Counted from the first letter of the stretch, positions 1-46,810 are shown. The stretch: DNA of 64,000 nt from Dehalococcoidia bacterium (GCA_965208885.1 CBDBPS010000002.1:1237750-1301749); one strand, 5' to 3'. Numbers and translations: made by a program. Notes: generated from the letters alone by a model not told the origin.

Positions 1-1
1 A

Positions 2-589
2 GAACTGCTTCCGACACCGTTCGTCGGCGACCCAGATGCACCCGTTGTACTGCTGAACCTCAATCCGGGCTATAGCGACAGGGATCCCGGGGACTATGCC
101 GAGCGGACCTTCCGCAATGCGGCGGTGGAGAATCTCACTCATGCGGTGAGCGGCCTGCCATTCTTCCCTATCGATCCTCGATTCGATGCAACTTCGTCCT
201 ATGACTGGTGGGCTGCGAGGCTGCGCGAGATCATGGAGGCCGCCGGATCGGACAACGTCGCCCGCAGCCTCTTCTGCGTCCAAGCGTTTCCGTACCACTC
301 AGTAGGCTTCGACTCGTGGCTATGGGACTCGGCGAGGCTGTACGAATCGTTCCCATCGCAGCGCTACACGGCACACCTCCTGTCTGAAGCGGTGGAGCGT
401 GGCGCAATGATCATCGGCTTACGCTCCGGCAAGGATGCCCGGAACTACTGGGGCAGCACCATGCCAGATCTCGATAGGGTCTGGTGGCTCCGCACCCGAA
501 CCGGCGGTGCACCCCGCAGCCCGTACGTGACTGAGAACCTGCTCGGCAGCGAGGGGTGGCGGGAACTCAGGAGCCGGCTCGGGGCATAA
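2..589 (+). CDS. hypothetical protein, 5'-truncated at window edge (frame open from nt 2; the first in-frame ATG at 125 is probably not the start)
   Basis: Open frame from window start to the stop at 589 with coding-like composition. I recognise no family. Confidence 0.45.
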   Translation, partial: ELLPTPFVGDPDAPVVLLNLNPGYSDRDPGDYAERTFRNAAVENLTHAVSGLPFFPIDPRFDATSSYDWWAARLREIMEAAGSDNVARSLFCVQAFPYHSVGFDSWLWDSARLYESFPSQRYTAHLLSEAVERGAMIIGLRSGKDARNYWGSTMPDLDRVWWLRTRTGGAPRSPYVTENLLGSEGWRELRSRLGA

Positions 590-639
590 ACACACATCGC
601 GACCGGTACCTCATCCACACCAGGGCACGGGAGCCACGC

Positions 640-860
640 ACCGGACGCCTCCCGCTGCCCCCTCTCCCCGAGGGAGAGGGCAGGGGTGAGGGAGATGGCG
701 CGGCGGATACAAGAGCCCCGCGACGCCTGTGGGCGTCCCCCCTCACCCTAGCCCTCGCCCCCTTCCCGGGGCGCGAGGGGATCAGATTTCGGCCCTCGCC
801 CTCGCCTGGCAGAGAGGGCGGGGGTGAGGGAGATGCGGCGCCGGGTGCGAGGAGATCAGA
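640..860. repeat. cluster of GC-rich palindromic repeat units (CCCTCACCC / CCCTCTCCCC / GGGGCGAGGGGATCAGAT arms) in both orientations
   Basis: Direct sequence comparison with copies at 6296-6372, 9244-9300, 41371-41700 and 53815-53945. Confidence 0.8.
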
Positions 861-899
861 CTCGGAGCGGAGGGCGCTGCCGCGCTGCTGGGCCCCGTC

Positions 900-2213
900 G
901 TGCGGCGTTACGATGACTGCATGACCGCCGCCGCGGACGCACCTCGGACCAGCCGGAGCGCGCTCTCCTACCCCAGCTACCGACGCTACTGGGTGTCGGC
1001 GGTCATGCGTGTCTTCGGTTTCCAGTTCCAGTTCATCGGCCTCGGCTGGCTCGTCGCCGTCGAGCTCGACTATTCGCCGTTCTGGCTCGGCACCGTGTGG
1101 ATGGCGAACGCCGTCCCCACCATCCTGCTCTCCCTCCCCGGCGGCGCCCTCGCCGACCGCAGCGACCCGTACAAGCTCATGGTCGGTACGCAGTTCCTGA
1201 TGGCTACCGGCCAGGCGGTGCTGGCAGTGCTGATCCTGACCGGGCTCGTCGAGCTCTGGATGGTCATCGCGTGGGCCATCTTCACCGGCGTGCTCTGGGC
1301 CGTCGCGGCGCCGTCCATGAACACGCTGCTCCCGAGGCTCATCGAGCCGCCCGCGATGCCGAGCGCAGTCGCGCTGATCAGCGCCATCTGGAGCGCGCTG
1401 CGCATCGTGGGGCCTGCCGGTGCGGGGGTGTTGATCGCGCTGGTCGGGACGGGTCACGCCTTCTCGGTGTGCGCGGCGCTCAATGTGCTCTCGTTCGTCG
1501 TGATGCTCACCATCCACGTCGCCTCGCGCGACGCGACCGAGCGCGAGGCCGGCGACGACGGCGGGATGCGGGCCGCGTTGCGGTTTGTCTTCGGACGCCC
1601 CGTGTTCGTGGCGACCATCGGGTTGTCGTTCTTCACCTCGGTCTTCGGCACCTCCTACGTCATCTTGCTGCCGATCTTCGCCAACGACCTGCTCAATGTC
1701 GGCTCGGAGGGCTTCGGCTTCATGGAAGCCGTCGCCGGGATTGGCTCCCTGGCGGGGACGTGGTGGGTGCTCCGCTACGGTATCGGCCAGCGGCCCGGCG
1801 TGCTCATGGCCGCCTCGGCGGCGGTGTTCGGCGTGCTCATCGCCATGTTCGCGGCCACGGACCACCTCGCGCCCGCCTCGGTGCTGCTGCTGGTGTCGGG
1901 CGTGACAGCCGAGCTGTACCTGATCATCGGGATGACGGTGATCCAGTTGCTGGTGCCCGACAGCCTGCGAGGCCGGGTGATGGGCATCTGGTCGATGACG
2001 TACTTCCTGGTCGCGGTCGGCGGCTTCATCGCGGGCTTCGCGGCGGAGTTCATCGGCGTCCGCATCACCATCGCGGCGGGGGCGCTCTCGGTGACGGCGT
2101 TCGCCCTCGCTGTCTACTTCGCCTCGTCTGAGTTGCGCGGCCTGCGCGGTGATGACGTGACACCCACGCCCGAGCCCGCCGAGGCAGCATCGGAGGCAGC
2201 GGCAGCGGGCTGA
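900..2213 (+). CDS. MFS transporter (EntS/enterobactin-exporter-like)
   Basis: About 12 predicted TM helices. The MFS-typical N-terminus 'YRRYWVSAV...GLGWLVAVEL' and a 'PGGALADRSDP' loop motif are present. Start is GTG at 900 or ATG at 921. Confidence 0.8.
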   Translation: MRRYDDCMTAAADAPRTSRSALSYPSYRRYWVSAVMRVFGFQFQFIGLGWLVAVELDYSPFWLGTVWMANAVPTILLSLPGGALADRSDPYKLMVGTQFLMATGQAVLAVLILTGLVELWMVIAWAIFTGVLWAVAAPSMNTLLPRLIEPPAMPSAVALISAIWSALRIVGPAGAGVLIALVGTGHAFSVCAALNVLSFVVMLTIHVASRDATEREAGDDGGMRAALRFVFGRPVFVATIGLSFFTSVFGTSYVILLPIFANDLLNVGSEGFGFMEAVAGIGSLAGTWWVLRYGIGQRPGVLMAASAAVFGVLIAMFAATDHLAPASVLLLVSGVTAELYLIIGMTVIQLLVPDSLRGRVMGIWSMTYFLVAVGGFIAGFAAEFIGVRITIAAGALSVTAFALAVYFASSELRGLRGDDVTPTPEPAEAASEAAAAG

Positions 2214-2249
2214 CGCCGTCGCCCGCCCGGACAATGCGTCGTCGGGTGG

Positions 2250-2284
2250 GGTAAATCGAGCCTCGGACACCCTACGATGGTTCC
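2250..2284 (+). promoter_or_regulatory. conserved promoter-like motif GGTAAATCGAGCC...TACGAT-6nt-ATG upstream of LuxR-TM regulator paralog 1 (leaderless start implied)
   Basis: Near-identical motif upstream of the paralogs at 6440-6475 and 52519-52551 (minus strand). Confidence 0.4.
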
Positions 2285-3565
2285 ATGGAGCGCAACCGTC
2301 GCGGCAGACCGCCCCACCCCGATGTGCTCACCCCGGCCGAGTGGCGCGTGCTCGAGGCGCTGCGCGACGGCGGGACGAACGCCGAGATCGCCACGCGCCT
2401 CGGCCTCAGCGCCGACACGGTGAAGTACCACATCTCGAACATGCTCGCGAAGCTGGAGCTGCGCGACCGTCGCGCGCTCGCCTCGTGGCGCCCCGAGGAG
2501 CGTCGAGGCCGCCTCGGCGCGCTGTTCACGGTGCCAGCGGTGGTGTGGTCGGTCGCGAGGCCGATCGCGTGGGTGGGGGCGGGGACGGCGGCTGTCGCGG
2601 GTGTGGTGGTGGGCGTCGTCGCCGTCGTGGCGCTGGTGGCCGTGGTGCTCGTCACCGCGGGCGGCGACAGCGACCCACCACCGCCGGTCGCGCCGACGCC
2701 GACGCACACCTCGACGCCCGCCCCGACGCGGACGCCGACTCCCGGGCTCGCGCCTGATCACCAGGACGACTGGTACGTTATCAGGGACACTTGGTTCAGG
2801 GACCCTTCGTACAGGAACTCACCACTGCCCCCTGGCCTGTACATCTACCGCGACGAGGAGTTCGAACCCCTGATCTTCGAGGTTCCGCCAGACACTCTCA
2901 TCAGGACAGGGGGCGTCTTCTATTTTGGAGGGTCAGATAGGCTCTGGCTCGATCTTGACGATATCCGGACCGGATCCTTTCTCCGCATCGAGGTGCGCTC
3001 CATCACTAACCGCTGGATCCAGCTGAGCCGTTACCACGACGGGTGCTTCTACGAATTGGGCGAGCCGTGCGAAGACCGGCGAGACGCCGCCGAAGACGTC
3101 CTTACCCGGATCCTTGCGTCGGTTGAGGGCTGCGCGAAGTCCACGCACCCCATCTGCAACTACGACCCACCGCCACCCGAGCCAACACCCGCACCTCGGC
3201 CACCCCGTTTGTGCCGGCCCGCACAACAGGTAGGCGCCGTGTTCGTCAGCGAGGCAGAGCTCCTGCACGACGGATACGTCATGCGCTCAGACGGTGATCG
3301 GCCGGTAATCTACAAGTTCAGGATCCGGCCGCAAGGCCGGCCAGACACACCGCCGACGCTGTATTTCTCGGTGCCAGAGGGGCTCCCACTCCGGTTCCAT
3401 GCGCGCGACGAAGAGACCATCACCCTCCGACACGCAGAGACCGACCTGTGGGTCCGTTACCACCTGTATGGAGGATACGAGGTTGGGCGTCACCCCGACG
3501 GCTCAGGATGGGCCAGAGGTCTGCTGCATCACGTGTCATCGTCGACCTGCGTCATCCCCCCATGA
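2285..3565 (+). CDS. membrane-anchored LuxR/GerE-family regulator: N-terminal HTH, single TM, Pro/Thr linker and a C-terminal extracytoplasmic domain of unknown family (paralog 1)
   Basis: Residues 14-75 match the LuxR C-terminal-type HTH ('LTPAEWRVLEALRDGGTNAEIATRLGLSADTVKYHISNMLAKLEL'). A hydrophobic helix 'AAVAGVVVGVVAVVALVAVVLV' follows, then a PPPPVAPTPTHTSTPAPTRTPTP linker. The region from 2760 onward has lower GC than surrounding DNA. Confidence 0.75.
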   Translation: MERNRRGRPPHPDVLTPAEWRVLEALRDGGTNAEIATRLGLSADTVKYHISNMLAKLELRDRRALASWRPEERRGRLGALFTVPAVVWSVARPIAWVGAGTAAVAGVVVGVVAVVALVAVVLVTAGGDSDPPPPVAPTPTHTSTPAPTRTPTPGLAPDHQDDWYVIRDTWFRDPSYRNSPLPPGLYIYRDEEFEPLIFEVPPDTLIRTGGVFYFGGSDRLWLDLDDIRTGSFLRIEVRSITNRWIQLSRYHDGCFYELGEPCEDRRDAAEDVLTRILASVEGCAKSTHPICNYDPPPPEPTPAPRPPRLCRPAQQVGAVFVSEAELLHDGYVMRSDGDRPVIYKFRIRPQGRPDTPPTLYFSVPEGLPLRFHARDEETITLRHAETDLWVRYHLYGGYEVGRHPDGSGWARGLLHHVSSSTCVIPP

Positions 3566-3710
3566 ATGTAACAGGCCTTGTACCCATCTCTTCGTGCAGC
3601 TGTGGATCCCGGGCTTGCTTGGCCAGCTTCACAGCTCTACCACCCACGCCCGAGGCTGCTGCCGCGAGCTGACGCGCGGCTCGCGCGCACGCTCGGCGGC
3701 ATCGCCCCCG

Positions 3711-4730
3711 TCACAGGACGCGGTGCACCAGGACGCCGCCGCGCCGCTCGGCGATGGCCTCGCCGCGCGCGACGAGCACGTCGAGCTGGCCGATGAGCTC
3801 GGTCATGGCCTGGGGGAGGCGGGGCTCGGGGAGGTGCGGGAACATCCGGCCGACCAGGCCGAACGCCGTGTCGGGCTGCTCCTCGAGCAGCGTCCGGAGT
3901 AGTGCCGGGCGGCGCTGGTGGTGGCGCTCGAAGCGGACGAAGAGCCGCTCCGCCGCCTCGCCCGCGACGGGTGTGCCGTGGCCGGGCAGCACGCGACGCA
4001 CGTCGAGCGCGCGCAGCCGCGCCACCGACGCGACGAAGTTGGGCAGCGACGGCAGTCGCGGGCCGACCCCACCATCCTCGGCGCCGGCGAAGTGCAAGCC
4101 GGGCGTCGGGACGGTGCCGGGCAGCAACGTGTCGCCCGAGTAGAGGTCGCCCGTCGCCTCGACGTAGGCGACGAGGTTGCCCCGCGTGTGGCCGGGCGCG
4201 TGGATCGCGCGCAGCGACGCGCCGCCCGCCAGCGCGAACTCCTCGCCGTCCTCGACCGCGTCGATGGCGTCGAGGGGGCACGGCTCCCAGCGGTACTCGG
4301 GAGGCCGCCTGCGCGTCGGCGACGACATCTGCTCGACGAGCTTGGCCGGCACCCCATGCTCGATCAACGCGTCGATGCGCGCGCCCCGCCGAGCGTCGTA
4401 CCACGCCTGCCCCCCGACGAGCGCGGGCACGTCGGCGGCCCCGGCGAGGATGCGGGCGCCCTCGGCGGCCCAGCGGGCGGCGAGCCCAGCGTGGTCGAGG
4501 TGGTGGTGGGTGATGAGCACCGCGCGCACGTCGGCGGTCTCGACGCCGCCCGCCGCGAGCCGCGCGCCCAGCAGCTCCCACGTCCCGCCGCCCGTGCCGT
4601 CCTCGGCGGCCGGTGCGCCCTCGAAGTCCGGTATGTCGGGCCCCGCGTCGACGAGCATCGTGCCGCCCTCGGCGAGGGGGAGGGCGTAGGCGGTGTTGTC
4701 GCCGAGAGGGAGCGGGAGGGGGTCAGTCAC
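3711..4730 (-). CDS. MBL-fold metallo-hydrolase
   Basis: HHHLDHAG (HxHxDH) motif plus downstream His/Asp ligands. Start is GTG at 4730. Confidence 0.85.
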   Translation of the reverse strand: MTDPLPLPLGDNTAYALPLAEGGTMLVDAGPDIPDFEGAPAAEDGTGGGTWELLGARLAAGGVETADVRAVLITHHHLDHAGLAARWAAEGARILAGAADVPALVGGQAWYDARRGARIDALIEHGVPAKLVEQMSSPTRRRPPEYRWEPCPLDAIDAVEDGEEFALAGGASLRAIHAPGHTRGNLVAYVEATGDLYSGDTLLPGTVPTPGLHFAGAEDGGVGPRLPSLPNFVASVARLRALDVRRVLPGHGTPVAGEAAERLFVRFERHHQRRPALLRTLLEEQPDTAFGLVGRMFPHLPEPRLPQAMTELIGQLDVLVARGEAIAERRGGVLVHRVL

Positions 4731-4789
4731 GCGGGTACACTCTCTCGTGCGCGCAGCGGACGCACCCCACCACTACCGACGGAGGACGG

Positions 4790-5048
4790 CATGAGCAAGC
4801 GGCTGCCGACTCTGGCCGACGTGCTTGAGGCGATTCGGGAGACGGTTGCGGACGGTCCCGAGGAGTATCGCCTGCCGGACTTCCTTGCCTCAATCGACTG
4901 GTCCACCGCCGTGCGCCCGACGCCCGAGGTTGCGGCGATGCTCGGGCGCCTCGAGCTGTGGGACTCAGAGTATCGTGAGGGCGACCTCGACTGGCCCGAG
5001 TTCGCCGAGCGCCTTGGCTCACTGAGCGAGGGCATCGCCGCCGGGTAG
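4790..5048 (+). CDS. small hypothetical protein (86 aa)
   Basis: GGAGGA RBS 6 nt upstream of ATG; GC3 about 80%. The upstream part of the long track ORF 3918..5048 is antisense to the MBL gene and was not called. Confidence 0.5.
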
Positions 5049-5054
5049 CGGGCG

Positions 5055-6284
5055 CTACCCCTCACCCAACAGCCACGTCCGCACCATGTTCAGCGCCTGC
5101 GTCGTCGCGCGGCGCTTCGCGGCCTCGCGGCCCTGGTAGTACGACCACGTCTCGTACGCGAAGCGCTCACCGTCGGTGAGCGCGAGGTGCATCGTGCCGG
5201 GGGGCTGGCCCTCGACCTCCTCGGCGCCGGCGATCCCCGTCAGGCCGAGGCCGAGATCCGCGCCGAGGGCCTCGCGAGCCGCGGCCGCCATCGCCTCCGC
5301 CGTCTCGCGCGAGATCACGCCGTGGGTTGCGGGCACCTCGGGCGGCACGCCGTTGGCGATCTTCGCCTCGGTCGCGTAGGTGACGAGGCTGCCGCGGAAG
5401 TACTCCGAGGAGCCCGCCACGTCGGTGATCGCGTTGCCGATCGCACCGCCCGTCGCCGACTCCATGACCGCGAGCGTCATCCCGCGCTCGCGCAGCAGCC
5501 GCCCGACGCCCGCGGCGAGCGTGTCGTCGTCCTCGCCCCACACGTTCGGCCCGAGGATCGAGCGAACGCGTTCCCCGACCGGGTCGATGAGCCGCCACGC
5601 CTCCTCGCGCGTCGGGGCCTTGGCGCTGATGCGTACGTGCACGCCGTCGCGACGCGCGTAGAGGCCGATCGAGGGGTTCGAGGTGCTGAGCAGCGACTCC
5701 AGCATCTCGTCAACCATCGACTCGCCGAGGCCGGCGGTCTTGAGGGTGTGCGAGACGAGGATGGCGTCGGCGCGACGCTCCAGCTCCGGGGCGACCTCGT
5801 GCTCCCACATGTGGGTCATCTCGGCCGGGGGGCCGGGCATGAGCACCGTCACGCGCCCGTCGCGCTCCACCCACCAACCGGGCGCGGTGCCGCGCGGGTT
5901 GGCGATGGCGCGCGCCGAGGGGATGAGCCACGCCTGCTTCATGTTGCGCTCGATGAGCGTGCGGCCGCGCTGCCCAAAGCGCTCCTCGAGGATGGCGCGC
6001 TGCTCGTCGTCGACGTGCACCTCCTCGCCGAGCACGGAGGCGACGGCCTCGCGGGTGACGTCGTCCTCGGTGGGGCCGAGGCCGCCGGTGGCGAAGGTGT
6101 AGTCGGAGCGCTCGCGGGCGCGGGCGAGCACCTCGTGGAGGCGGCCGGGGTTGTCGCCGACCTGGGTGACGTAGAGCAGGTCGATGCCGAACTCGGGGAG
6201 CTGCGAGGCGATGAAGGCGGCGTTCGTGTCGGTGATCTCACCGAGCATGATCTCGGTCCCGATCGAGACGATCTCCGCCCGCAT
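5055..6284 (-). CDS. cinA: CinA-family protein (MoaB/MogA-like domain plus C-terminal CinA/PncC-like nicotinamide-nucleotide amidohydrolase domain)
   Basis: The sequence 'MRAEIVSIGTEIMLGEITDTNAAFIASQL...' matches CinA. ATG at 6284..6282 was verified on the + strand as CAT. The upstream part of the track ORF runs into the repeat element. Confidence 0.85.
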   Translation of the reverse strand: MRAEIVSIGTEIMLGEITDTNAAFIASQLPEFGIDLLYVTQVGDNPGRLHEVLARARERSDYTFATGGLGPTEDDVTREAVASVLGEEVHVDDEQRAILEERFGQRGRTLIERNMKQAWLIPSARAIANPRGTAPGWWVERDGRVTVLMPGPPAEMTHMWEHEVAPELERRADAILVSHTLKTAGLGESMVDEMLESLLSTSNPSIGLYARRDGVHVRISAKAPTREEAWRLIDPVGERVRSILGPNVWGEDDDTLAAGVGRLLRERGMTLAVMESATGGAIGNAITDVAGSSEYFRGSLVTYATEAKIANGVPPEVPATHGVISRETAEAMAAAAREALGADLGLGLTGIAGAEEVEGQPPGTMHLALTDGERFAYETWSYYQGREAAKRRATTQALNMVRTWLLGEG

Positions 6285-6295
6285 GCCGCTGTCCC

Positions 6296-6372
6296 CTCGC
6301 CGCCCGACCCGCGTTCCGGTCCCCTCGCCCCGTCGGGGAGAGGGTGAGGGTGAGGGGTCTGCCCGCGCGGTC
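6296..6372. repeat. GC-rich palindromic repeat element (reverse orientation) in the cinA / LuxR-LRR divergent intergenic region
   Basis: The reverse complement reads CCCCTCACCCTCACCCTCTCCCCGACGGGGCGAGGGGACC, matching the family. Confidence 0.8.
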
Positions 6373-6439
6373 CCTGCTCTCACCACCGTGCCGCGTCGAG
6401 GATACAGGGCGTCTCGTCGCGGGGCGCGAGGGTCGGGTA

Positions 6440-6475
6440 GGGAAACCTCGGCGCTCCGCACACTAGGATGGTTCG
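6440..6475 (+). promoter_or_regulatory. conserved promoter-like motif GGGAAACCTCGGC...TAGGAT-6nt-ATG upstream of paralog 2
   Basis: Aligned with 2250-2284 and 52519-52551. Confidence 0.35.
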
Positions 6476-8478
6476 ATGGAGCGCAACCGTGGCGGCCGAC
6501 CCCGGCACCCCGACGTCCTGACGCCGGCCGAGTGGCGGGTGCTCGAGGCGTTGCGCGAGGGCGGGACGAACGCCGAGATCGGCGCACGGCTCGGGATCAG
6601 CGCCGACGCGGTCAAGTACCACGTCTCGAACATGCTCGGGAAGCTGGAGTTGCGCGACCGCCGCGCGCTCGCCGCTTGGCGCCCCCAGGAGCGTCGAGGC
6701 CGGATGCCGGCGTGGTTCGCGGTCCCGGCGGCCCTCGCGGCCATCGCGCGGCCGGTCGCGTGGGTGGGGATCGGGACCGCGGCCGCTGTTGTGGCGGTGG
6801 CCGTGGTGCTCATAGTGGTGACAGGCGACGGCGAGCCGTCCTCGGTCGCCCTCCCGCCGGTCGCCACGCCCGACGCCACTTCGACGCCAGCGGCGACGGC
6901 GACGGTCGCGCCGACGGCGAGCGCGACGCCATCGCTCGCGCCGACCGTCACGCCCGCACCGGAACCAACGCCGACGCCCACACCAACTCCAGCGTCGACG
7001 CCGACGCCCACACCAACGCCGACCGCGGCACGCACGGGTCCTTCGGCACCGACGCTGCCGCCGTATTCGCTCACGGTGACCATCACGGGGCCTGGAGGCG
7101 AGGTTACGCCCGCGGGGATCACGACGCAGGACGCGAACAGCGAGGTGACGCTGACAGCCGCTTGGAACGACGCGACGCACGACTTCGGTGGCTGGACCGG
7201 CGACTGCAGCGGCACGACCACGACGTGCGTGCTCACGATGGATGCGGACAAGACGATGACCGCGACGTTCACTGCGTTGCCCGCCACGCGCTGCGCGACT
7301 CCCGCCGCCGCAGACTGCATCCGCGCCGTGTACCGGGCGCGCCCACGGACTACGCCCAGGTCGTCGATATCCCGGCGGAGGTGCTGATCACGCGACGTGG
7401 GGACGGTCACTACCCCGTGAGGCGTGGGCAGCAGATCACTGTGGTGACCGCTGCGCCGCTACCCACCGGTTGGACGCGCTTCTACCTGGAGCGCGACGCG
7501 GGGCCGACGTACTGGACGCCGTCGCCTGTGAGCTTCTCGCAACTCATCCAGCCCGTGGGGACGACCTACACGTTCACGGTGACCACCGACGATCGCGGCG
7601 CGGACCTCATCACGTTCGACCTGACCGCCGCGAAGCCACACCCGGAGCGGCCAACGGACAAGCCGGTGCTCGGCGACGTCGTCGTGACCACCGCCATTAG
7701 GGTCGTTCCTCAGAGCATCTTCAGCACGTGCAGGACGGGAACGCCTGTCCCCAACCCCGCAGCGAATCCTGCCCTCGTCGAGGACTGCGAGGCCCTGATC
7801 GCGTGGCGGGACACGCTAGCGGGTACGGCCACGCTCGAGTGGCACGCAGGCATTGCGATGACGAGCTGGCAGGGCGTGACTGTCGCGGGGACCCCGAGCC
7901 GCGTCACGAAGCTGGAGCTCGCGGACACAGGGTTCACGGGCGAGCTCTCGGGTCTCGTCGGCGAGCTCACGGGACTGACGGAACTGCGCCTGAACGGCAA
8001 CGCTCTCTCGGGGCGCATCCCTTCGAAGGTGGCGCTGCTGAGCCGCCTCACCCACGTTTACCTGGGTGGGAACGCGATCACAGGCTACGTGCCTCCATCG
8101 CTGCGGGCCGTCGCGAACCACGATATCGCGACCCTCGGCGGCCTCCCGGACTGTGGCGCTCCCGTGGATGTGTCCTACGGAGACCACACGCTGACCGCCG
8201 GCACGTACCAGGTCATCTGGGCTGAAGGCGATCCGCCGCTGGTCTTTGACATACCACCTGGGCTCCAGCTGGAGGTGGATGGCTGGGCGTACCAGGGTCC
8301 GGACGAGGTTGGGCTGATCCTGCGGGAGGTAAACGGTGAGGCGTTCATTGGTCTCGACGTGTACGGGCTGTACGGGGGCCCGGAATGGGGCCGCTATCTG
8401 CCCGATCCCGGCGACGACGCCCGCCTGATTCCACTCTTCGACCGCGTCGTTGAGTCAGCATGGATAGACGAAGGGTAG
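6476..8478 (+). pseudogene. membrane-anchored LuxR/GerE-family regulator with extracytoplasmic plant-type LRR sensor (paralog 2); the reading frame is broken by a 1-nt deletion near 7335-7345 (frameshift or sequencing error)
   Basis: Frame 2 (6476..7387) encodes the HTH, TM helix and a long Pro/Thr/Ala linker. Frame 1 continues without stops to 8478 and encodes an LRRNT-like cap ('C.AL..WR.........W.GV.V.G...RVT.L.L') plus LRRs ('LSGLVGELTGLTELRLNGNALSGRIPSKVALLSRLTHVYLGGNAITGYVP'). The frame junction maps by nucleotide alignment to the intact paralog at 50908..52518. The N-terminal part of the track ORF 6184..8478 is not homologous to that paralog. Confidence 0.6.
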
Positions 8479-37529: not shown

Positions 37530-38987
37530 GTGACCACTGATTCTGCAGCGACGCCGGAATCCCAGGCAGGACGCGCCCGCCTGGCCGTCATCGGCGGTGG
37601 CCCCGGCGGCTACCCGGCCGCATTCCTCGCGGCCGACATGGGCATGCAGGTCACGCTCATCGACGAGGAGCCGAACCCCGGTGGGGTGTGCCTGTATCGC
37701 GGCTGCATCCCCTCGAAGGCGCTGCTGCACGTCGCCGCACTGATCGAGGAGGCAGAGCTCGCGAAGGACTGGGGTGTCGCCTTCGGCGAGCCGACTGTCG
37801 ACCTCGCAAAGCTGCGCGGCTTCAAGCAGGGCGTCGTCGACCGCCTGACCGGCGGGCTCGGCCAGCTCTCCGGCCAGCACAAGGTCAACTACGTGCAGGG
37901 GCGCGCGACGTTCCTCGACGCGCACACGCTCAGCGTCGCGCCCGCCGAGGGCAGCGACGCGCCGCCGACCGTGGAGTTTGACTACGCCATCATCGCTACT
38001 GGCTCCTCGCCGACACGCATCCCGGCGCTCGACATCGGCAGCCCGAGGGTGCTCGACTCCACGTCCGCGCTCGAGCTCGAGCGCGTGCCGGAGACGCTGC
38101 TCGTCGTGGGCGGCGGGTACATTGGGCTCGAACTCGGCAGCGTCTACGCCGCGCTCGGCTCGCGTGTCACCGTCGTCGAGATGACGAACGGGCTGCTGCC
38201 CGGCGTCGACCGCGACCTCGTGCGGCAGTTGCAGCGGCGGCTGCGCCGCAGCTTCGACGCGATCCGCCTCGAGACCACCGTGCTCGGCATGGAGGAGACG
38301 GACGACGGCATCCGCGCCCGCATCGCGGGCAACGAGGGCGAGCCCGAGGAGCACGTCTTCGACCAGGTGCTCGTCGCCGTCGGGCGCCGGCCGAACAGCG
38401 CGAACCTCGGCCTCGAACGCACCAGCGTGGAGGTCGACGCGCGGGGGTTCATCGAGGTGGACGCGCAGCGCCGCACGGCCGAGCCGCACATCCTGGCGGT
38501 CGGCGACGTGGCCGGGGAGCCGATGCTCGCCCACAAGGCCTCGCACGAGGCGTCGGTCGCCGTCGAGACCCTCGCCGGTCAGCCCTCGGTGTGGGGCGAG
38601 CGCACGGTGCCGGCGGTGATCTACACCGACCCGGAGATCGCGTGGGCCGGCCTCACCGAGACCGAGGCCACGGACCAGCGCATCGAGGTCGAGGTGTCGA
38701 CGATGCCGTGGGCCGCGTCGGGCCGCGCGACCACCATCGGCCGCAACGACGGCGCGACGAAGCTCGTCCTGGAGCCGCACACGCACCGAGTGCTCGGCGT
38801 CGGAATCGTCGGGAAGGGCGCGGGCGAGCTGATCAGCGAAGCCGTGCTCGCCATCGAGATGGGCGCGGTCGCGCAGGACCTCGAGCTGACGGTCCACCCG
38901 CACCCGACGCTGTCCGAGACGCTGATGCACGCGGCAGCGGCCTTCTACGGACGCAGCCCGGACTACATCGGGCGGCGCAGGCGATAG
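37530..38987 (+). CDS. lpdA: dihydrolipoyl dehydrogenase (E3)
   Basis: 'GGGPGGY', 'GGVCLYRGCIPSK' and the C-terminal 'HAHPTLSE'. GTG start at 37530 follows GGAGTGGGAGAG. Confidence 0.9.
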   Translation: MTTDSAATPESQAGRARLAVIGGGPGGYPAAFLAADMGMQVTLIDEEPNPGGVCLYRGCIPSKALLHVAALIEEAELAKDWGVAFGEPTVDLAKLRGFKQGVVDRLTGGLGQLSGQHKVNYVQGRATFLDAHTLSVAPAEGSDAPPTVEFDYAIIATGSSPTRIPALDIGSPRVLDSTSALELERVPETLLVVGGGYIGLELGSVYAALGSRVTVVEMTNGLLPGVDRDLVRQLQRRLRRSFDAIRLETTVLGMEETDDGIRARIAGNEGEPEEHVFDQVLVAVGRRPNSANLGLERTSVEVDARGFIEVDAQRRTAEPHILAVGDVAGEPMLAHKASHEASVAVETLAGQPSVWGERTVPAVIYTDPEIAWAGLTETEATDQRIEVEVSTMPWAASGRATTIGRNDGATKLVLEPHTHRVLGVGIVGKGAGELISEAVLAIEMGAVAQDLELTVHPHPTLSETLMHAAAAFYGRSPDYIGRRRR

Positions 38988-39625: not shown

Positions 39626-41326
39626 CTACGCGTCGAGTTCGTCTGGGAGGCGGAACTCGACGTCCTCCTCCGTCAGCACGATGGGCTCGACCTTCGTCAC
39701 ACCCCGCGCCTTGAGGTCTTCGATGATCGGGTCGAGGAGCTCGTCGGGGACGGACGCGCCCGACGTGAGGCCCACGACTTCGACGCCCTCGTACCAGGCC
39801 GGGTCGACGTCCTCGATGCCGTCGACGAGGTAGGCGGTTGCGCCGGCGTCCTCGGCTACCTCACGGAGCCGCATCGAGTTGCTTGAATTGCGCGAGCCGA
39901 CGACGAGCACGAGGTCCGCCCGCTGCGCGATCGTGCGCGCCGCGTGCTGGCGGTTCGTGGTGGCGTAGCAGATGTCGTTGCGGACCTCGGCGGCCGGGTA
40001 GCGGTCGCGGATCTCGTCGATCACGCCGGCGGTGTCGTCCATCGAGAGCGTGGTCTGCGTCACGACGAAGACCGGGCGCCCGATCTCGCCAAGCGCGGCC
40101 ACCTCGGACGGGTCCTCGACGACGTGCGTCCGCTCGGGCGCCTCGCCGAGCGTGCCGACGGTCTCGTCGTGGCCGCGGTGGCCCACCAGGAGCACGTCGT
40201 AGCCGCGCTTCGCGGCCTGCTTCGTCTCGAGGTGCACCTTCGTCACGAGGGGGCACGTGGAGTCGACGACGCGCAGGTTGCGTCGCTCCGCCTCTTCGAC
40301 CACCGCGGGCGAGACGCCGTGCGCACTGAAGACGACGCGCGAGCCCTCGGGCACCTCGGCGAGGTCGTCGATGAAGACGACGCCGCGCGCCTCGAAGCTC
40401 TCGACGATGTGGCGGTTGTGGACGATCTCGTGGAACGCGTAGATCGGCGGCGACTCGCGCTCGACGATCATCTCGAGCGCCTCGACGGCGCGCACCACGC
40501 CGGCACAGAAGCCGCGCGGGGCGGCTATCAGCAGCGTGTGCGGCGTGACGCCCGTGCGGTGGCGCGACGGCGCGTGCCGGGTCGGAGCGAGCGAGACGGA
40601 GCCATGCCTGAGCGGTGGCGGCGCCACGCGCCGGCCGCGGGGTCGGCCTCGGAGCGCGGTGGCGGACCATGCCGCCCGGCCACCATCGCCCCGATCCTCG
40701 CGATGCGGCATGACGTCGACGCGCGGCGGCAGCATCAGGCTGACGACGCGCAGCGCCGCCGGCGGGATGCGCTGGGCGTGCTTGCCGTAGAGCTCGATGG
40801 CTTCCCGGCGCTTGCGGCAGACGGCCTCGGAGACGCGCGCGTCGGCATCACCAACCACGCCGCGAACCTGCGAGACGGCGCCGAGGATTGGCTCGGTGAG
40901 CAGGTCCATGAGCAGCTCGTCCGTACCCGGCGTCCACCCGGGGTGGGAGATGCGGGGCGGGAGTGCGAGGCTCACGACACGCAACGCCGGTGTGGGGATA
41001 CGCTCGGCCTGCGCTCCGCAGAGCTCGAGGGCTTCCTGGCGCCTGCGGCTGACGGCCTCGGAGACGCGCTCGTCGGCCTCGCGGGCCACCTCGCGCACCT
41101 GCGAGACCACGTCGAGGATCGGCTCGGTGATGACGTCGACGAGCAACTCGTCGCCCGTGCGGGGCGACCAGCCGGGGTGCGTGAGCCGGGGTGGCAGCAT
41201 CAGGTCCACGACGCGCCGCACAACCCCGCGACTCCGGGTCGCGATGGAGTCCAGCCAGGTGCCGCCAGAGGCGTCTTTCGGCATCGACGGAATTCCCCCG
41301 TGCAAGCCTCGCCTGCACGCCGCCAT
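39626..41326 (-). CDS. ispH: 4-hydroxy-3-methylbut-2-enyl diphosphate reductase (IspH/LytB) with an in-frame N-terminal extension of about 250 aa; alternative shorter start ATG 40711
   Basis: The C-terminal 300 aa is canonical IspH ('PRGFCAGVVRA', 'HEIVHN', 'SAHGVSP', 'TCPLVTKVH', 'VVGSRNSSNS'). The frame stays open upstream through the tandem repeat region with GC3 above 90%; no stop separates it from the IspH core. Confidence 0.6.
   Translation of the reverse strand: MAACRRGLHGGIPSMPKDASGGTWLDSIATRSRGVVRRVVDLMLPPRLTHPGWSPRTGDELLVDVITEPILDVVSQVREVAREADERVSEAVSRRRQEALELCGAQAERIPTPALRVVSLALPPRISHPGWTPGTDELLMDLLTEPILGAVSQVRGVVGDADARVSEAVCRKRREAIELYGKHAQRIPPAALRVVSLMLPPRVDVMPHREDRGDGGRAAWSATALRGRPRGRRVAPPPLRHGSVSLAPTRHAPSRHRTGVTPHTLLIAAPRGFCAGVVRAVEALEMIVERESPPIYAFHEIVHNRHIVESFEARGVVFIDDLAEVPEGSRVVFSAHGVSPAVVEEAERRNLRVVDSTCPLVTKVHLETKQAAKRGYDVLLVGHRGHDETVGTLGEAPERTHVVEDPSEVAALGEIGRPVFVVTQTTLSMDDTAGVIDEIRDRYPAAEVRNDICYATTNRQHAARTIAQRADLVLVVGSRNSSNSMRLREVAEDAGATAYLVDGIEDVDPAWYEGVEVVGLTSGASVPDELLDPIIEDLKARGVTKVEPIVLTEEDVEFRLPDELDA
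40741..41230 (-). repeat. diverged tandem duplication (2 x about 234 bp, roughly 75% nt identity) inside the N-terminal extension of the ispH reading frame; each copy encodes an LPPR(L/I)(T/S)HPGW...TEPIL...VSQVR...RVSEAV...RIP...ALRVVSL motif
   Basis: Self-alignment of 40741-40975 against 40975-41230. Confidence 0.8.
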
Positions 41327-41370: not shown

Positions 41371-41700
41371 CGGCCCCTCGCCCCGCCGTCGGGGGCGAGG
41401 GGATCAGATCTGGACCCCGCAGGGCCCGCTGGGGGCGAGGGGAGCCGATCCGTCCCCCTCTCCCTGTATGGCTGGGTCGGCGAGCCGAGGGCGCGCCCTC
41501 GGCTCGCCTCGATGCGGGGATACCCCGCTGGCCCCGCCGGGGGCGAGGGAAGCCGATCTGTCCCCCTCTCCCCTTGTGGGAGAGGGCTGGGGTGAGGGGT
41601 TCCGGCGGCTGGCGCTCTTCGCGTGGCGCCCCCCTCACCCTAACCCTCTCCCCCCAGGAGGGGGGCGAGGGGATCAGATCGGGCGCCGGGGGCCGAGCCT
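41371..41700. repeat. tandem cluster of at least five GC-rich palindromic repeat units (GGGGGCGAGGG(G/A)(A/G)(T/G)C(A/C)GATC with CCCCTC(A/G)CCC / CCCTCTCCCC arms) in the ispH / RM-enzyme divergent intergenic region
   Basis: Copies at 41371-41414, 41417-41480, 41517-41600, 41630-41700 and partial arms between them. Confidence 0.85.
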
Positions 41701-41751
41701 GTGTCCCAACGGACGCAGTCCATTACGATCGCGCTGAAGCGAGGAGCGCCC

Positions 41752-44682
41752 GTGACCGCCGCACCCGGCATCTCCGCCGCCGCGTTCGCCGCCAAGTGGC
41801 GCGACAACGCGCGCCGCGAGCACGCATCCTCGCAGGAGCACTTCATCGACCTCTGCCGCCTGCTCGGCGTGCCGACGCCCAATGAGGCCGACCCCACCGG
41901 CGAGTCGTACACGTTCGAGGCGGGTGCGGAGCGGCTCAGCACGGGGCGGCAGGGCTGGGCCGACGTCTGGAAGCGCGGCCACTTCGGCTGGGAGTACAAG
42001 GGCGCGCACGCCGACCTCCGCGCGGCCTACCGCCAGCTCCTCGACTACCGCGAGGACCTTGAGAACCCGCCCGCGCTCGTCGTCAGCGACATGGACCGCA
42101 TCGAGGTCCACACGAACTTCACGGGCACCCGCCCCGTCGTGCACGACGTCACGCTCGACGACCTGGCCGAGGGCGGCGACCGTACCGCCGAGGCGATGCG
42201 CATCCTCGGCGCCGTCATGCTCGACCCCGCCGCGCTGCGGCCGGAGCAGACGCCCGACGAGATCACGCAGCTGGCCGCGGCGCGCTTCGCCGAGATCGCG
42301 CAGTCCATGCACGAGCGCGGGCACGACCCGGAGGCGGTCGCGCACCACCTCAACCGCGTCGTCTTCTGCCTGTTCGCCGAGGACGCCCGCCTGCTGCCGG
42401 AGCGCGTGCTGACCGAGATGATCGAGTCGCGCCGGGGCGACCCGGAGGCGTTCGACACCGGGCTGCGCGAGCTGTTCCTACGGATGTCGGACCGCGACGC
42501 CGACCGCTTCTACGGCAACGTGCGCGTCGAGTGGTTCAACGGCGGGCTCTTCGACGACGCCGAGGTGATCCCGTGTACCCGCGAGGAGCTGCGCGCGATG
42601 CACGACGCGGCGCTGCTCGACTGGTCGCGGGTGGAGCCGGCGATCCTCGGCACGCTGTTCGAGCGCGGGCTGGACCCGGACAAGCGCGGTCAACTGGGCG
42701 CGCACTACACGGACCACGAGAAGATCATGATGGTGGTCGAGCCCGTGGTGCTCGAGCCGCTGCGCCGCGAGTTCGAGGCGATGCAGGCGCGCGTCGAGGA
42801 GCTGGCGGGCGGGCAGGAGCCGAGCCCGCTCACGCTCGACGGTCGCCGCCGCGAGCGGCTACCGGCGTGGGAGCGGGACGCCGAGGCGGAGTGGCGGGCG
42901 TTCCTCGAACGGCTGCGGGCGGTGCGGGTGCTGGACCCGGCGTGCGGGTCGGGGAACTTCCTGTACGTGACGCTGCGGCGGCTCAAGGACCTGGAGCATG
43001 AGGCGATCCGCTGGGGCGCGGAGCGGCTGCGCATTCCCGCCGACTTCCCGCAGATCGATCCGCACAATGTGCTGGGCATCGAGATCAACCCGTACGCGAG
43101 GGAGCTGGCGGGCGTCTCAATCTGGATCGGGCACATCCAGTGGATGATCGACCATGGGTACGGTCTCCCGCGCGACCCGGTGCTCGATCGACTCGACAAC
43201 ATCGAGCTACGCGACGCGATCCTCGCCTACGACGACGAGGGCACCCCGGTTCCGGCCACCTGGCCGGAGGCCGAGTTCGTCGTCGGCAACCCTCCGTTTC
43301 TTGGTACCAAGCTCATGAGGCTGTCGCTGGGGGACGAGTACGTCGGCGACGTGTTCGTTGCGTGGGACGGCTCAGTGGCTCGCGAGTCGGACTTGGCGTG
43401 TTACTGGCACGAGCTCGCGCGAAGGCGGATCGCGGAGGGCGTGACGCGGCGCGCAGGTCTCCTCGCTACTAACTCGATCCGCGGCGGCGCGAACCGCACC
43501 ACGCTCGACCGGGTCAAAGGGAGCGGCGAGATCTTCATGGCCTGGTCTGACGAGGAATGGGTCGTCGAGGACGCGGCTGTGCGCGTTTCGATCGTCGGGC
43601 AGGACGACGGCTCGGAGGCCGAACGGACACTCGACGGAGATGTTGTTGACGTGATCAACAGCAACCTGACGACCGGCGTAGACGTGACGCAGGCTCGCAT
43701 GCTCGGTGAGAACGCGGATGCCTCGTTCATGGGGGACACTAAGGGCGGAGCATTCAACGTTCCGGGCGAAGTGGCCCGCGAGATGTTGAAGCAGCCCACG
43801 AACGTCAACGGGCGCCGCAACGCTGACGTGCTGGTGCCTTGGGTGAATGGGCTGGACGTCACCCGGAGGCCACGGGGCACCTTCATCATCGACTTCGGTG
43901 CGGACGCCAGCGGGTCTGACGCGGCTGCGTACGAAGCGCCGTACGGGTACGCCCGGAAGCACGTCCAGCCAGTTCGCGCGAACAACCGGCGCAAGGCTTA
44001 CCGCGAACGGTGGTGGCTCCATGTTGAGCCCCGACCAGCGATGCGAAAGGCTCTGGCTCCGCTACGCCGTTTCGTCGCAACGCCCACGGTGGCCAAGCAC
44101 CGCCTGTTCGTCTGGCTGTCAGCCCCAACGCTCCCCGACCACCAACTCATTGTCATTGCGCGGGAGGACGACTACGCGTTCGGGGTGCTGCACTCGCGGG
44201 CGCACGAGCTATGGTCGCTGCGCATGGGGACGTGGCTCGGCGTTGGGAACGACCCGCGCTACACGCCCACCTCCACCTTCGAGACCTTCCCCTTCCCATG
44301 GCCCCTCGACACCCCCGACGAGGCGCTGACCGACGAGCAGCGCGCGCACCGCGACGCCATCGGCGAGGCGGCGCAGGCGCTCGACGAGTCGCGTCGGCGC
44401 TGGCTCAACCCGCCCGAGCTCGTGCGCGAGGAGCCCGACGTTGTGCCCTCGCTGCCCACGCGCCTGCTCCCCGTCGACGGGGACGCCGAGCGGGTGCTCA
44501 AGCGCCGCACGCTCACCAACCTCTACAACGAGCGCCCGGCGTGGCTCGCCAACCTCCACCGCGCCCTCGACGCCGCCGTGTTCGCGGCCTACGGGTGGTC
44601 GGAGGCCGGGGAGCCGGATGAGCTGGGGGAGGAGGAGCTGCTGGGGCGGCTGCTGGCTCTGAATTTGGAGCGGGCGGGGTAG
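41752..44682 (+). CDS. MmeI-family Type IIL (type IIG) restriction-modification enzyme: N-terminal PD-(D/E)xK endonuclease fused to an N6-adenine methyltransferase and target-recognition region
   Basis: N-terminal 'WADVWKRGHFGWEYKG' (D...EYK, matching MmeI-family 'FW.GK.LIEQKS'). MTase motif I is 'VLDPACGSGNFLY' and motif IV is 'VVGNPPFLG'. A roughly 400-aa lower-GC C-terminal region follows. GTG 41752 with a GAGGAG RBS; the track start 41701 is the alternative. Confidence 0.85.
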   Translation: MTAAPGISAAAFAAKWRDNARREHASSQEHFIDLCRLLGVPTPNEADPTGESYTFEAGAERLSTGRQGWADVWKRGHFGWEYKGAHADLRAAYRQLLDYREDLENPPALVVSDMDRIEVHTNFTGTRPVVHDVTLDDLAEGGDRTAEAMRILGAVMLDPAALRPEQTPDEITQLAAARFAEIAQSMHERGHDPEAVAHHLNRVVFCLFAEDARLLPERVLTEMIESRRGDPEAFDTGLRELFLRMSDRDADRFYGNVRVEWFNGGLFDDAEVIPCTREELRAMHDAALLDWSRVEPAILGTLFERGLDPDKRGQLGAHYTDHEKIMMVVEPVVLEPLRREFEAMQARVEELAGGQEPSPLTLDGRRRERLPAWERDAEAEWRAFLERLRAVRVLDPACGSGNFLYVTLRRLKDLEHEAIRWGAERLRIPADFPQIDPHNVLGIEINPYARELAGVSIWIGHIQWMIDHGYGLPRDPVLDRLDNIELRDAILAYDDEGTPVPATWPEAEFVVGNPPFLGTKLMRLSLGDEYVGDVFVAWDGSVARESDLACYWHELARRRIAEGVTRRAGLLATNSIRGGANRTTLDRVKGSGEIFMAWSDEEWVVEDAAVRVSIVGQDDGSEAERTLDGDVVDVINSNLTTGVDVTQARMLGENADASFMGDTKGGAFNVPGEVAREMLKQPTNVNGRRNADVLVPWVNGLDVTRRPRGTFIIDFGADASGSDAAAYEAPYGYARKHVQPVRANNRRKAYRERWWLHVEPRPAMRKALAPLRRFVATPTVAKHRLFVWLSAPTLPDHQLIVIAREDDYAFGVLHSRAHELWSLRMGTWLGVGNDPRYTPTSTFETFPFPWPLDTPDEALTDEQRAHRDAIGEAAQALDESRRRWLNPPELVREEPDVVPSLPTRLLPVDGDAERVLKRRTLTNLYNERPAWLANLHRALDAAVFAAYGWSEAGEPDELGEEELLGRLLALNLERAG

Positions 44683-44744
44683 CGCCTCGCCACAGCGAGG
44701 CGCGATGCTAGACTCGATCGGCACGGCGATCGGGAGCCGGAATC

Positions 44745-45020
44745 ATGGACGTCAAGGAAGCAGTCGTGGTCGCGAAGAGCTACCTCGCCGATCTCCTGTC
44801 TGACGAGGATGTCACCAACGTCGGGCTGGAGGAGATCGAGCGTTTAGGCTCCGTGTGGCAGATCACGCTTGGGTTCTCACGACCGTGGGACTACCAGCGT
44901 GCCCAAGCATGGCGCGCGGAGCCGAGACCACCTCGTCGGTCGTACAAAGTGCTGAAAGTCGATGACGGCTCCGGCCAGGTCGTCTCGGTCAAGGAGCACT
45001 CGACAGCGACTGCGAACTGA
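44745..45020 (+). CDS. small protein of unknown family (91 aa), paralog of 45568..45837
   Basis: Roughly 35-40% identical to the downstream paralog ('MDV(K/R)EA...A(K/R)SY...LEE...W..TLGF.RPWD...RSYK...DD.G.VV'). It ends 4 nt before the PIN gene. Confidence 0.55.
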   Translation: MDVKEAVVVAKSYLADLLSDEDVTNVGLEEIERLGSVWQITLGFSRPWDYQRAQAWRAEPRPPRRSYKVLKVDDGSGQVVSVKEHSTATAN

Positions 45021-45024
45021 GTCG

Positions 45025-45480
45025 ATGCCGCCGACCGGCTACTTCATCGACGCGAACCTGCTTGTGTTGCTCGTCGTTGGCCTTGAGGATCCTGCGCTCA
45101 TCGACACGCACCGTCGATTGCGCGACTACACCGTTGCGGACTATGACACGCTCCTCGACATCGTCGGCGACGAGACTGTGTTCGTGACCCCAAACACGCT
45201 GACCGAGGCGTCCAACCTGCTCGGGTATCGCCGGGATCTGCGCTCGAGTCTGTACGGACGGCTCAGGTGGCTCATCGAAGAGAGTGAGGAGATCATCGTC
45301 CGCAGCGCCGATGCAGCCTCGAACAGCTCGTACCGCCGACTCGGGTTGACCGATGCCGCGCTCCTCGAAGTCGCGAGTGCTGACACGCCTGTCGTTACAT
45401 CCGATGTCGCCCTGTACAACGCCGCATCTGAGAAGGATCACGCTGCGGCCGTGAACTTCGCCCATCACCGTTCGGCCTAG
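45025..45480 (+). CDS. PIN-domain (VapC-like) ribonuclease
   Basis: Four conserved acidic positions in the canonical order ('YFIDAN', 'TPNTLTEASN', 'GLTDAALLEVA', 'VVTSDVALY'). Confidence 0.7.
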   Translation: MPPTGYFIDANLLVLLVVGLEDPALIDTHRRLRDYTVADYDTLLDIVGDETVFVTPNTLTEASNLLGYRRDLRSSLYGRLRWLIEESEEIIVRSADAASNSSYRRLGLTDAALLEVASADTPVVTSDVALYNAASEKDHAAAVNFAHHRSA

Positions 45481-45567
45481 TGCGCGCCCGACCGAAGACC
45501 CACACCGCGGGGGCTCGACCGGGCCATGCACGCTACACTCGATGCGAAGCGTGACGGAGCGGAGTGC

Positions 45568-45837
45568 ATGGACGTCCGGGAAGCGGCTGCGCTCGCACGG
45601 AGCTACTTCGCCTCGGTGTATCTCGACGAGGCGATCGAGGGCCTTCGGCTTGAGGAGCTCAAGTACGACTACGATGAGGACGAGTGGAGCGTCACTCTGG
45701 GGTTCATCCGCCCGTGGGATCAGGGACTCGCCAGCGAGCCCACAGAGATCGCTGGACGCTCCTACAAGGAAATTCGCATCAGCGATGACACCGGTGAAGT
45801 CGTAGCGCTCAGGGATCGCTTCCCCCGCGCGGACTGA
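45568..45837 (+). CDS. small protein of unknown family (89 aa), paralog of 44745..45020
   Basis: Homology to 44745..45020. GGAGCGGAG RBS before ATG 45568; ATG 45526 is an alternative start. Confidence 0.55.
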   Translation: MDVREAAALARSYFASVYLDEAIEGLRLEELKYDYDEDEWSVTLGFIRPWDQGLASEPTEIAGRSYKEIRISDDTGEVVALRDRFPRAD

Positions 45838-45925
45838 GCCGCCACTCCCCCGCTGCCCAGCCTGACGCGCGGGCTCCGCTCCGCCGGGGGCTATACTCGA
45901 CGGGTCCGAGCAGAAGGGCGGGGAC

Positions 45926-46810
45926 ATGTTCTTCATCAACGTCGTCAAGCAGTACGAGCGGGCGGTCGTCTTCCGCCTCGGCCGTCACATCGGCACGCGC
46001 GGGCCGGGGCTCGTGATCCTGATTCCGTTCGTCGACAACGGCGTGCGCGTCGACCTGCGAGAGTTCGTGATCGAGGAGCCCAAGCAGACCTCGATCACGA
46101 AGGACAACGCGCTCGTCGACGTGGACTTCGTCGTGTTCCTGCAGGTTGCGCAACCCGAAGACGCGGTCATCAACATCAACAACTTCGTCGTCGCCGTCCG
46201 CAACCTGGCGACCACCTCGCTGCGCGCCGTCATCGGCGACCTCACCGTCGAGGATGTGCTGGCCCGCCGCGAGGAGATCAACACGCGGCTGCAGGTCAAG
46301 ATCTCCGAGGAGACCGTGCGCTGGGGCGTCGAGGTGCGCTCCGTCGAGATCCGCGAGATCACGCCGCAGGCCGACATCCAGCACGCGATGACCCAGCTCC
46401 TCACCGCGGACCGCACGAAGCGCGCGCTGATCACCGAGTCCGAGGGCGAGCGGCAGGCCGCGATCAACGTGGCCGAGGGCAACAAGCAACGGTCGATCCT
46501 CGAGGCCGAGGGCTCACGCGAGTCCCAGATCCTGCGCGCGGAGGGGTCGCGCCAGGCGCAGATCCTGGAGGCCGAGGGCTTCTCGACCGGCCTGCAGCGC
46601 ATCTACGAGACGGCGCAGGGCGTCGACTCGAAGACGATGGGGCTGCAATACCTGGACATGATGAAGCAGCTGGGCGCGGGCGAGTCCACGAAGTGGATCA
46701 TCCCGATGGACCTCGCGAGCGTCGCGGGCGGCCTCAGCGACACGCTGTCGGGCCTGTCGAGCATGGGTGGCAACGGCGACGGCGCGGGGAGCGCCAACGG
46801 CGACAGCTAG
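45926..46810 (+). CDS. SPFH / band-7 (stomatin-prohibitin-like) protein
   Basis: 'VKQYERAVVFRLGR' and the EA-repeat coiled coil 'ILEAEGSRESQILRAEGSRQAQILEAEG'. There is no obvious N-terminal TM helix. Confidence 0.9.
   Translation: MFFINVVKQYERAVVFRLGRHIGTRGPGLVILIPFVDNGVRVDLREFVIEEPKQTSITKDNALVDVDFVVFLQVAQPEDAVININNFVVAVRNLATTSLRAVIGDLTVEDVLARREEINTRLQVKISEETVRWGVEVRSVEIREITPQADIQHAMTQLLTADRTKRALITESEGERQAAINVAEGNKQRSILEAEGSRESQILRAEGSRQAQILEAEGFSTGLQRIYETAQGVDSKTMGLQYLDMMKQLGAGESTKWIIPMDLASVAGGLSDTLSGLSSMGGNGDGAGSANGDS

Follow-up and report, generated by a model that had tools for sequence, protein, structure and literature searches.

A mobile gene pair of a divergent PIN-like nuclease and a small partner of unusual predicted fold, a candidate toxin-antitoxin module, with a second partner copy in a Dehalococcoidia genome

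Modules built on a PIN-domain nuclease of the VapC kind form the largest class of toxin-antitoxin (TA) systems, in which the catalogued partners resemble transcription factors and have DNA-binding folds (RHH, AbrB/MazE, Phd/YefM, HTH, UPF0175; PMC5499597). Antitoxins that stand without a toxin, the orphan antitoxins, are another known category (reviewed in PMC7354431). The locus described here lies in a 64,000-nucleotide stretch of a Dehalococcoidia genome (GCA_965208885.1, CBDBPS010000002.1:1237750-1301749; hereafter the window), where a gene for a PIN-like nuclease (PIN) is preceded by a small gene, A, and followed by a second gene of the same family, A'. The A-PIN pair resembles VapBC and FitAB in the close coupling of a small first gene to a second that encodes a PIN protein of about 150 aa, in which four acidic residues are conserved, and in being mobile, multi-copy and patchily distributed. 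It is unlike them in its partner protein, whose structural model shows none of the DNA-binding folds listed in PMC5499597 and predicts a compact helix with a four-stranded sheet instead.

The three genes follow one another on the same strand (Table 1), with 4 nt between A and PIN and 87 nt between PIN and A'. The gene directly upstream of A encodes a protein that matches the Pfam model MmeI_Mtase (7.7e-27), as well as MmeI_hel and MmeI_TRD, and the PADLOC model REase_MTase_IIG (3e-285). Together, the three small genes (44745-45837) form the lowest-GC 1093-nt stretch of the window, at 62.8% against a window mean of 70.0% (sd 2.2); each of them lies at 61-63% GC, and their GC3 of 75-78% compares with 90-96% in the flanking + strand genes. 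An earlier interpretation made from the DNA alone (the sequence-only reading) had described this gene order with the same lengths and gaps, a restriction-modification (RM) enzyme directly upstream and a lower-GC setting, and the ORF listing, the domain searches and the base composition bear it out on all of these. Past Band_7 lie housekeeping-type genes (GNAT, NfeD, TrkA/TrkH), and IspH lies beyond the MmeI-like gene on the other side; the region on the Band_7 side is homologous in the related contigs L175, L081 and L082. The order MmeI, A, PIN recurs in the closest relatives (L081-L083, L175, L001 and L002). In L001, which is not syntenic with the window, the MmeI-like gene directly upstream of A-PIN is 78% identical to that of the window, and A-PIN has 62% GC within a 70% GC background, as it does here. 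The MmeI-like gene is a neighbour and no fixed part of the A-PIN module.

Table 1. Features of the locus and its surroundings, with positions counted from the first nucleotide of the window
Feature	Position	Strand	Remarks
tRNA-Arg (TCG)	37655-37750	-	96 nt; ARAGORN
IspH/LytB ORF	39626-41326	-	566 aa; LYTB domain at residues 266-538 only
IspH/MmeI intergenic region	41374-41690		G-rich repeats and imperfect palindrome
MmeI-like type IIG restriction-modification gene	41701-44682	+	993 aa; directly upstream of A
Perfect 9-bp inverted repeat GCGCCTCGC caca GCGAGGCGC	44682-44703	.	repeat search
-10-like motif GCTAGACTCG	44707-44716	+	38 nt before A start; candidate A-PIN promoter
A	44745-45020	+	91 aa; ORF listing and raw sequence
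PIN-like (VapC-like) nuclease gene	45025-45480	+	151 aa; candidate toxin
-10-like motif GCTACACTCG	45532-45541	+	36 nt before A' start; candidate separate A' promoter
A'	45568-45837	+	89 aa, start taken at conserved MDV
Third motif copy GCTATACTCG	45890-45899	+	36 nt before Band_7/SPFH gene
Band_7/SPFH gene	45926-46810	+	downstream edge of the island

Several features of the surroundings deserve mention in their own right. The IspH ORF carries an N-terminal extension with an internal tandem duplication of about 90 aa (…LPPR.THPGW.P…LTEPIL..VSQVR…ERVSEAV…), and its homologue in L081 is likewise long (600 aa). Between IspH and the MmeI-like gene lie four copies of a G-rich repeat of about 33 nt (CCG.CGGGGGCGAGGG.A.C.GATC...) and a 35-nt imperfect palindrome; the repeats resemble a REP-like repetitive element, and an Rfam search of this region returned chance matches to microRNA hairpins only. 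The tRNA-Arg is unusually long for a bacterial tRNA of this kind.

The 10-mer GCTANACTCG occurs three times in the window against 0.36 expected, and all three copies lie at this locus, 36-38 nt before the start codons of the consecutive genes A, A' and Band_7. These copies look like a shared -10/leader element, and they may also be a record of module insertion or duplication at the site. The motif upstream of A is kept in L081 and L175, and the TACACTC before A' is unchanged between the window, L081 and L082; with a promoter-like motif of its own, a copy of which is conserved in relatives, A' would constitute an independent transcription unit. The inverted repeat upstream of A begins on the final base of the MmeI stop codon, and its end lies 4 nt ahead of the -10-like motif of A. 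It may serve as a terminator hairpin of the MmeI-like gene or as an operator; a consensus scan found no T-tract terminator.

Across other genomes, it is the pair of A and PIN that recurs. A PIN-seeded search with one genome per species yielded 388 confirmed loci, and in the best 80 of these, which were examined, A lies directly upstream of PIN on the same strand in every case (80/80), while a downstream A is found in none (0/80). These 80 loci belong to Chloroflexota/Dehalococcoidia, Nitrospirota, Latescibacterota, Acidobacteriota, Binatia, Entotheonella, Alpha- and Gammaproteobacteria, Spirochaetia and others. When metagenome loci were collected with A as the seed, PIN sequence was found directly downstream in 74 out of 80; four of the remaining six end at a contig edge, and the other two, the near-duplicates L149 and L152, have an A on its own next to a PIN-like gene that is unrelated. 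In the gene models, PIN begins between -19 and +22 nt from the stop of A, with a mode of +4 as in the window. Two small co-directional genes in a fixed order, with the candidate antitoxin first, are the gene layout of type II TA systems, and both collections show it. The functional unit is A-PIN, not A-PIN-A': the 160 loci sampled from other organisms show A-PIN only, and the idea that a nuclease bracketed by two partner copies forms the unit finds no support. The same comparison across genomes, which the sequence-only reading had proposed as a check, showed that A homologues without a PIN neighbour are rare rather than widespread, A almost always adjoining PIN.

The middle protein finds no match among the Pfam, NCBIfam, PADLOC and PHROGs models or the PDB sequences. 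Its homologues, which hardly vary in length, number at least 2620, a figure that counts clusters at 90% identity (at least 2600). In an alignment of 31 homologues (56-75% identity), the acidic residues D9, E61, D110 and D127 are invariant, as are the motifs HRRL and TPNTLTE(A/T)SNLL. The AlphaFold2 model (pLDDT 88, pTM 0.85) has the three-layer alpha/beta/alpha architecture of the PIN fold, and its top Foldseek matches in the PDB are mainly PIN, VapC and FitB proteins, the predicted structure being nearest to those of VapC/FitB type alongside the cyclodehydratase RohQ; these matches have probabilities of 0.97-1.0 and TM scores of 0.5-0.6, but E-values of only 0.007-0.1. Below the Pfam thresholds, 9 of the 31 homologues match PIN (PF01850) and 5 match PIN_3 (PF13470), with best E-values of 0.0027-0.0055, and distant cyanobacterial members are labelled 'PIN domain-containing protein' in RefSeq. 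On the strength of the predicted fold, the invariant acidic residues, the sub-threshold Pfam matches and the RefSeq labels, we accept the middle gene as encoding a divergent PIN nuclease with an intact four-acid catalytic site. The PIN label given from the DNA alone thus stands as far as predicted structure and conserved acidic residues go, and not at the level of sequence models at threshold, since the protein, unlike VapC and FitB, falls below that of every Pfam PIN model. All three genes of the locus are under purifying selection, with dN/dS of 0.15-0.23 for A, 0.15-0.29 for PIN and 0.17-0.24 for A'.

A and A' share 39% identity across 88 residues (BLASTP E 1e-18) and score 125 and 103 bits, respectively, with the A-family profile, so that their likeness is not due to chance and they are indeed paralogous, as had been read from the sequence. 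A word-indexed search found at least 171 homologues of A, and a full profile search (E <= 0.001) gave a family of 2980 clusters at 50% identity, almost all of them 90-100 aa long. Eighteen positions are invariant across phyla, including M1, E5, LEE, GF.R.W and RSYK, and the invariant charged motifs are GLEE, GFSRPW and RSYK. The AlphaFold2 model of A (pLDDT 85) predicts one helix at the N-terminus that packs against an antiparallel sheet of four strands; the loop at residues 50-65 is variable and of low confidence. Searches with A gave no match in Pfam, NCBIfam or PADLOC, nor among the PDB sequences, and Pfam searches with 41 members of the family gave nothing consistent and no profile link to a Pfam family or PDB chain. 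Foldseek returned from the PDB a weak cystatin- or NTF2-like resemblance (best E 0.019, none reaching 0.001; TM 0.43-0.60, 6-17% identity), and from BFVD weak matches to uncharacterised phage proteins. The predicted helix on a curved antiparallel sheet is at most reminiscent of cystatin-like and minimal NTF2-like proteins, and the matched proteins are designed or uncharacterised ones; the resemblance is at the level of the fold, as no sequence profile links A to them. RHH, AbrB, Phd/YefM and HTH antitoxins are absent among the Foldseek matches of A in the PDB and BFVD, and the predicted helix-plus-sheet structure agrees with the earlier view that A and A' stand outside the classical antitoxin folds. 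Some members of the family are single proteins of two tandem A domains (P0259, P0260 and P0278). One such fusion, in L178 (2029-3098), precedes a PIN gene interrupted near codon 71 by an in-frame TGA, and another, in L179 (189-764), precedes a glyoxalase gene, with no PIN.

Not every property of A speaks for an antitoxin. A and PIN are both acidic (pI about 4.9), so that the contrast between an acidic antitoxin and a basic toxin is missing; A is unusually conserved for an antitoxin, as its 18 invariant positions indicate; and its model shows neither the DNA-binding domain of type II antitoxins nor the typical disordered tail that binds the toxin. The way in which the pair decays, on the other hand, fits an antitoxin (A) and a toxin (PIN). 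Among loci with an intact PIN and enough contig sequence, 77/78 have an intact A and none lacks the gene, whereas of those with an intact A, 53/65 have an intact PIN, 10 a truncated or frameshifted one and 2 none (Fisher p = 6e-4, for a comparison between two collections, genome representatives and metagenome contigs, with the near-duplicates L102/L103 and L149/L152 and the borderline calls L119 and L122 included). Additional broken PIN genes follow an intact A in L175 and L178, and a split A stands beside an intact PIN in L040 and L101. Loss of PIN with A kept, and rarely the reverse, would follow if PIN did harm in the absence of A and A on its own did none.

We therefore regard it as probable, with room for doubt, that A and PIN form a VapBC-like type II TA pair and that A' is an orphan antitoxin derived from a second module. 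The PIN protein would be a metal-dependent ribonuclease with a four-acid active site, acting as the toxin. A, a compact helix-plus-sheet protein translated just before it, would bind and block the nuclease, probably as a dimer, and might do so by placing an invariant basic residue (R46, R65, K68 or R85) into the acidic pocket. No DNA-binding domain is recognisable in A, which would therefore neutralise the toxin but not serve as the usual repressor. A' may have been kept in reserve for neutralising the resident PIN or to protect against incoming modules, and cross-neutralisation of the neighbouring PIN by A' is plausible.

The A-PIN pair is horizontally mobile, with a distribution that is patchy and often multi-copy. 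One identical PIN protein (P0092) is found on 20 contigs with differing neighbours, its module being flanked by DDE transposases, resolvases and a Mu-type transposase, and one genome carries two copies of the pair (L003 and L019). Plasmids of Nostoc, Leptolyngbya, Kovacikia and Allocoleopsis carry A-PIN as well, and in a predicted prophage it lies between a serine recombinase and portal/terminase genes. On the Leptolyngbya plasmid the pair stands alongside DUF433-DUF5615, macro/DUF4433 and MazEF-like pairs. In the two plasmids that were inspected, L176 (NC_019742.1) and L177 (NZ_CP046156.1), it is inserted between DUF499 and DUF1156 genes, a site that looks like a methylase-associated defence operon serving as a landing pad for TA modules. 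The 100 largest flanking ORFs of 59 loci match 116 different Pfam families. The sequence-only reading had suggested an undescribed TA or defence module, and this agrees with a module that is present in none of the family libraries searched and that behaves as a mobile gene pair. Two further observations concern the contigs that bear P0092. In L170 (3340-5462), an IS element with HTH and DDE_3 genes lies between A and PIN of an otherwise identical module, both genes being intact at a distance of about 1.4 kb. In L165-L171 (5657-8292, - strand), a conserved pair of DUF6414 and AAA-ATPase genes, with a small resolvase, lies beside the module and may be another mobile or defence cassette.

Such surroundings also bring to mind an anti-phage abortive-infection module, in which A would keep the nuclease in check and be removed or titrated upon a phage cue. 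The adjacency to RM genes would then reflect a role in a defence island and not plasmid-style addiction, and in its mechanism this reading overlaps with the TA pair. It would account for an MmeI-like RM gene lying immediately upstream of the pair in the window, L081-L083, L175, L001 and L002, for the insertion between DUF499 and DUF1156 genes on the cyanobacterial plasmids, for the TIR-domain gene near the pair in L175, for carriage by a prophage, and for the matches of some flanking ORFs to Type ISP, Mrr, DNA-methylase and AAA_15/21. Yet the models of PADLOC (PADLOC-DB v2) match none of A, PIN and A' at E <= 1, and most neighbours are ordinary metabolic or housekeeping genes, with about 10% of the 100 flanking ORFs being RM- or defence-like (a raw share, without a baseline). 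We consider it unlikely that the role is primarily one in abortive infection.

The third gene of the locus is a matter of a single lineage. A' has five database matches, all from the window's own lineage; beyond the window it is found in L081-L083 only, where the whole order of IspH, MmeI, A, PIN, A' and Band_7 is kept, and it is absent from the 160 other loci. Between the window (44745-45837) and L081 (4696-5833), A' is 80% and PIN 75% identical, while A is only 53% identical and has a longer loop in L081, which suggests that A was swapped or is diverging faster. A' is up to 53% identical to other members of the family, against the 39% that it shares with the neighbouring A. The syntenic relative L175 has two tandem A-PIN modules between MmeI and Band_7, the second of them with a frameshifted PIN, and from this second module to Band_7 it is homologous to the window sequence that follows A'. 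These tandem modules, with their second PIN broken, occupy the site at which the window has A, PIN and A', and in their light A' can be seen as a relic. At 48% identity to the second A of L175 and 52% to the first, A' is not specifically closest to the second one, so that this scenario holds by analogy and not by orthology. By that analogy, A' is most likely an orphan antitoxin left from a second A-PIN module, and the simplest history would have two modules, the second of which lost its PIN and retained its A gene. A' is like the orphan antitoxins (PMC7354431) in belonging to an antitoxin family without an adjacent toxin of its own, in being under purifying selection and in sitting where a relative has a decaying second module; it is unlike them in lying immediately after an intact homologous module, thereby bracketing the toxin. 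As to other genes at the L175 site (1-7184), a gene with a TIR_2 domain is present, the MmeI-like gene is split into pieces of 579 and 223 aa, and two adjacent DUF2283-like genes lie between the intact A-PIN and the second one; small TA-like genes gather at this site, a hotspot for them.

Two readings would give A', or the A family as a whole, a different part from that of a leftover antitoxin. According to the first, A is a dimeric controller of the PIN nuclease, heteromeric and tripartite with A' at this locus, or else the A family has a role independent of PIN; the latter is hinted at by the A-A fusions and by solo A genes that persist after PIN loss, and we find this first reading improbable. 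The second is a three-component system particular to this lineage, in which an A/A' heterodimer, or a neutraliser together with a regulator, controls PIN. Such systems exist: in omega-epsilon-zeta and paaR-paaA-parE, the antitoxin has no DNA-binding domain and a third gene serves regulation, this third component being a DNA-binding repressor conserved with the pair. A' is unlike it, as a paralogue of the candidate antitoxin with no DNA-binding fold in its predicted family structure and with a range of one lineage, and a third gene conserved with A-PIN across the family was not found, A' occurring in the window and L081-L083 only. The purifying selection on A', its better conservation than that of A between the window and L081, the atypical GC common to all three genes and the keeping of the trio in at least four related contigs are consistent with three components working together, and the existence of natural A-A fusions indicates that two A domains are able to do so. 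Against this stand the lack of A' in 160/160 loci outside the lineage, its own promoter-like element and 87-nt spacer in place of translational coupling, and the two-module intermediate in L175; moreover, the fusions that could be placed adjoin a PIN with an in-frame stop (L178) or no PIN (L179), and no DNA-binding fold is predicted for the A family. A three-component system with diverged functions of A and A', as the sequence-only reading had allowed for, therefore appears quite improbable. Finally, that A and PIN are subunits of an ordinary RNA-processing nuclease, with A as a substrate-binding or stabilising cofactor, would suit the strong conservation of A (GLEE, GFSRPW, RSYK), which is less expected of a fast-evolving antitoxin than of a functional partner, and its lack of a DNA-binding domain, but is very unlikely given the patchy, multi-copy and mobile distribution that includes plasmids and a prophage, a composition foreign to the host, the repeated inactivation of PIN while A persists, and the absence among the flanking ORFs of a conserved link to genes of RNA metabolism.

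The A-PIN pair is thus widespread across phyla, on plasmids, in a prophage and beside RM genes, yet Pfam, NCBIfam and PADLOC contain no model that matches it. Confirmation of A as the inhibitor of the nuclease would establish a new antitoxin family with a different regulatory logic, and thousands of environmental genes now called 'hypothetical', many of them apparently from marine host-associated bacteria, would receive a name. Should the reading of A as a controller be true, this family of about 3000 clusters would represent a new mode of controlling PIN nucleases without a DNA-binding antitoxin. The orphan A' and the relative L175 with its two modules offer a natural series in which the decay of such modules, and cross-protection by a leftover antitoxin, can be followed.
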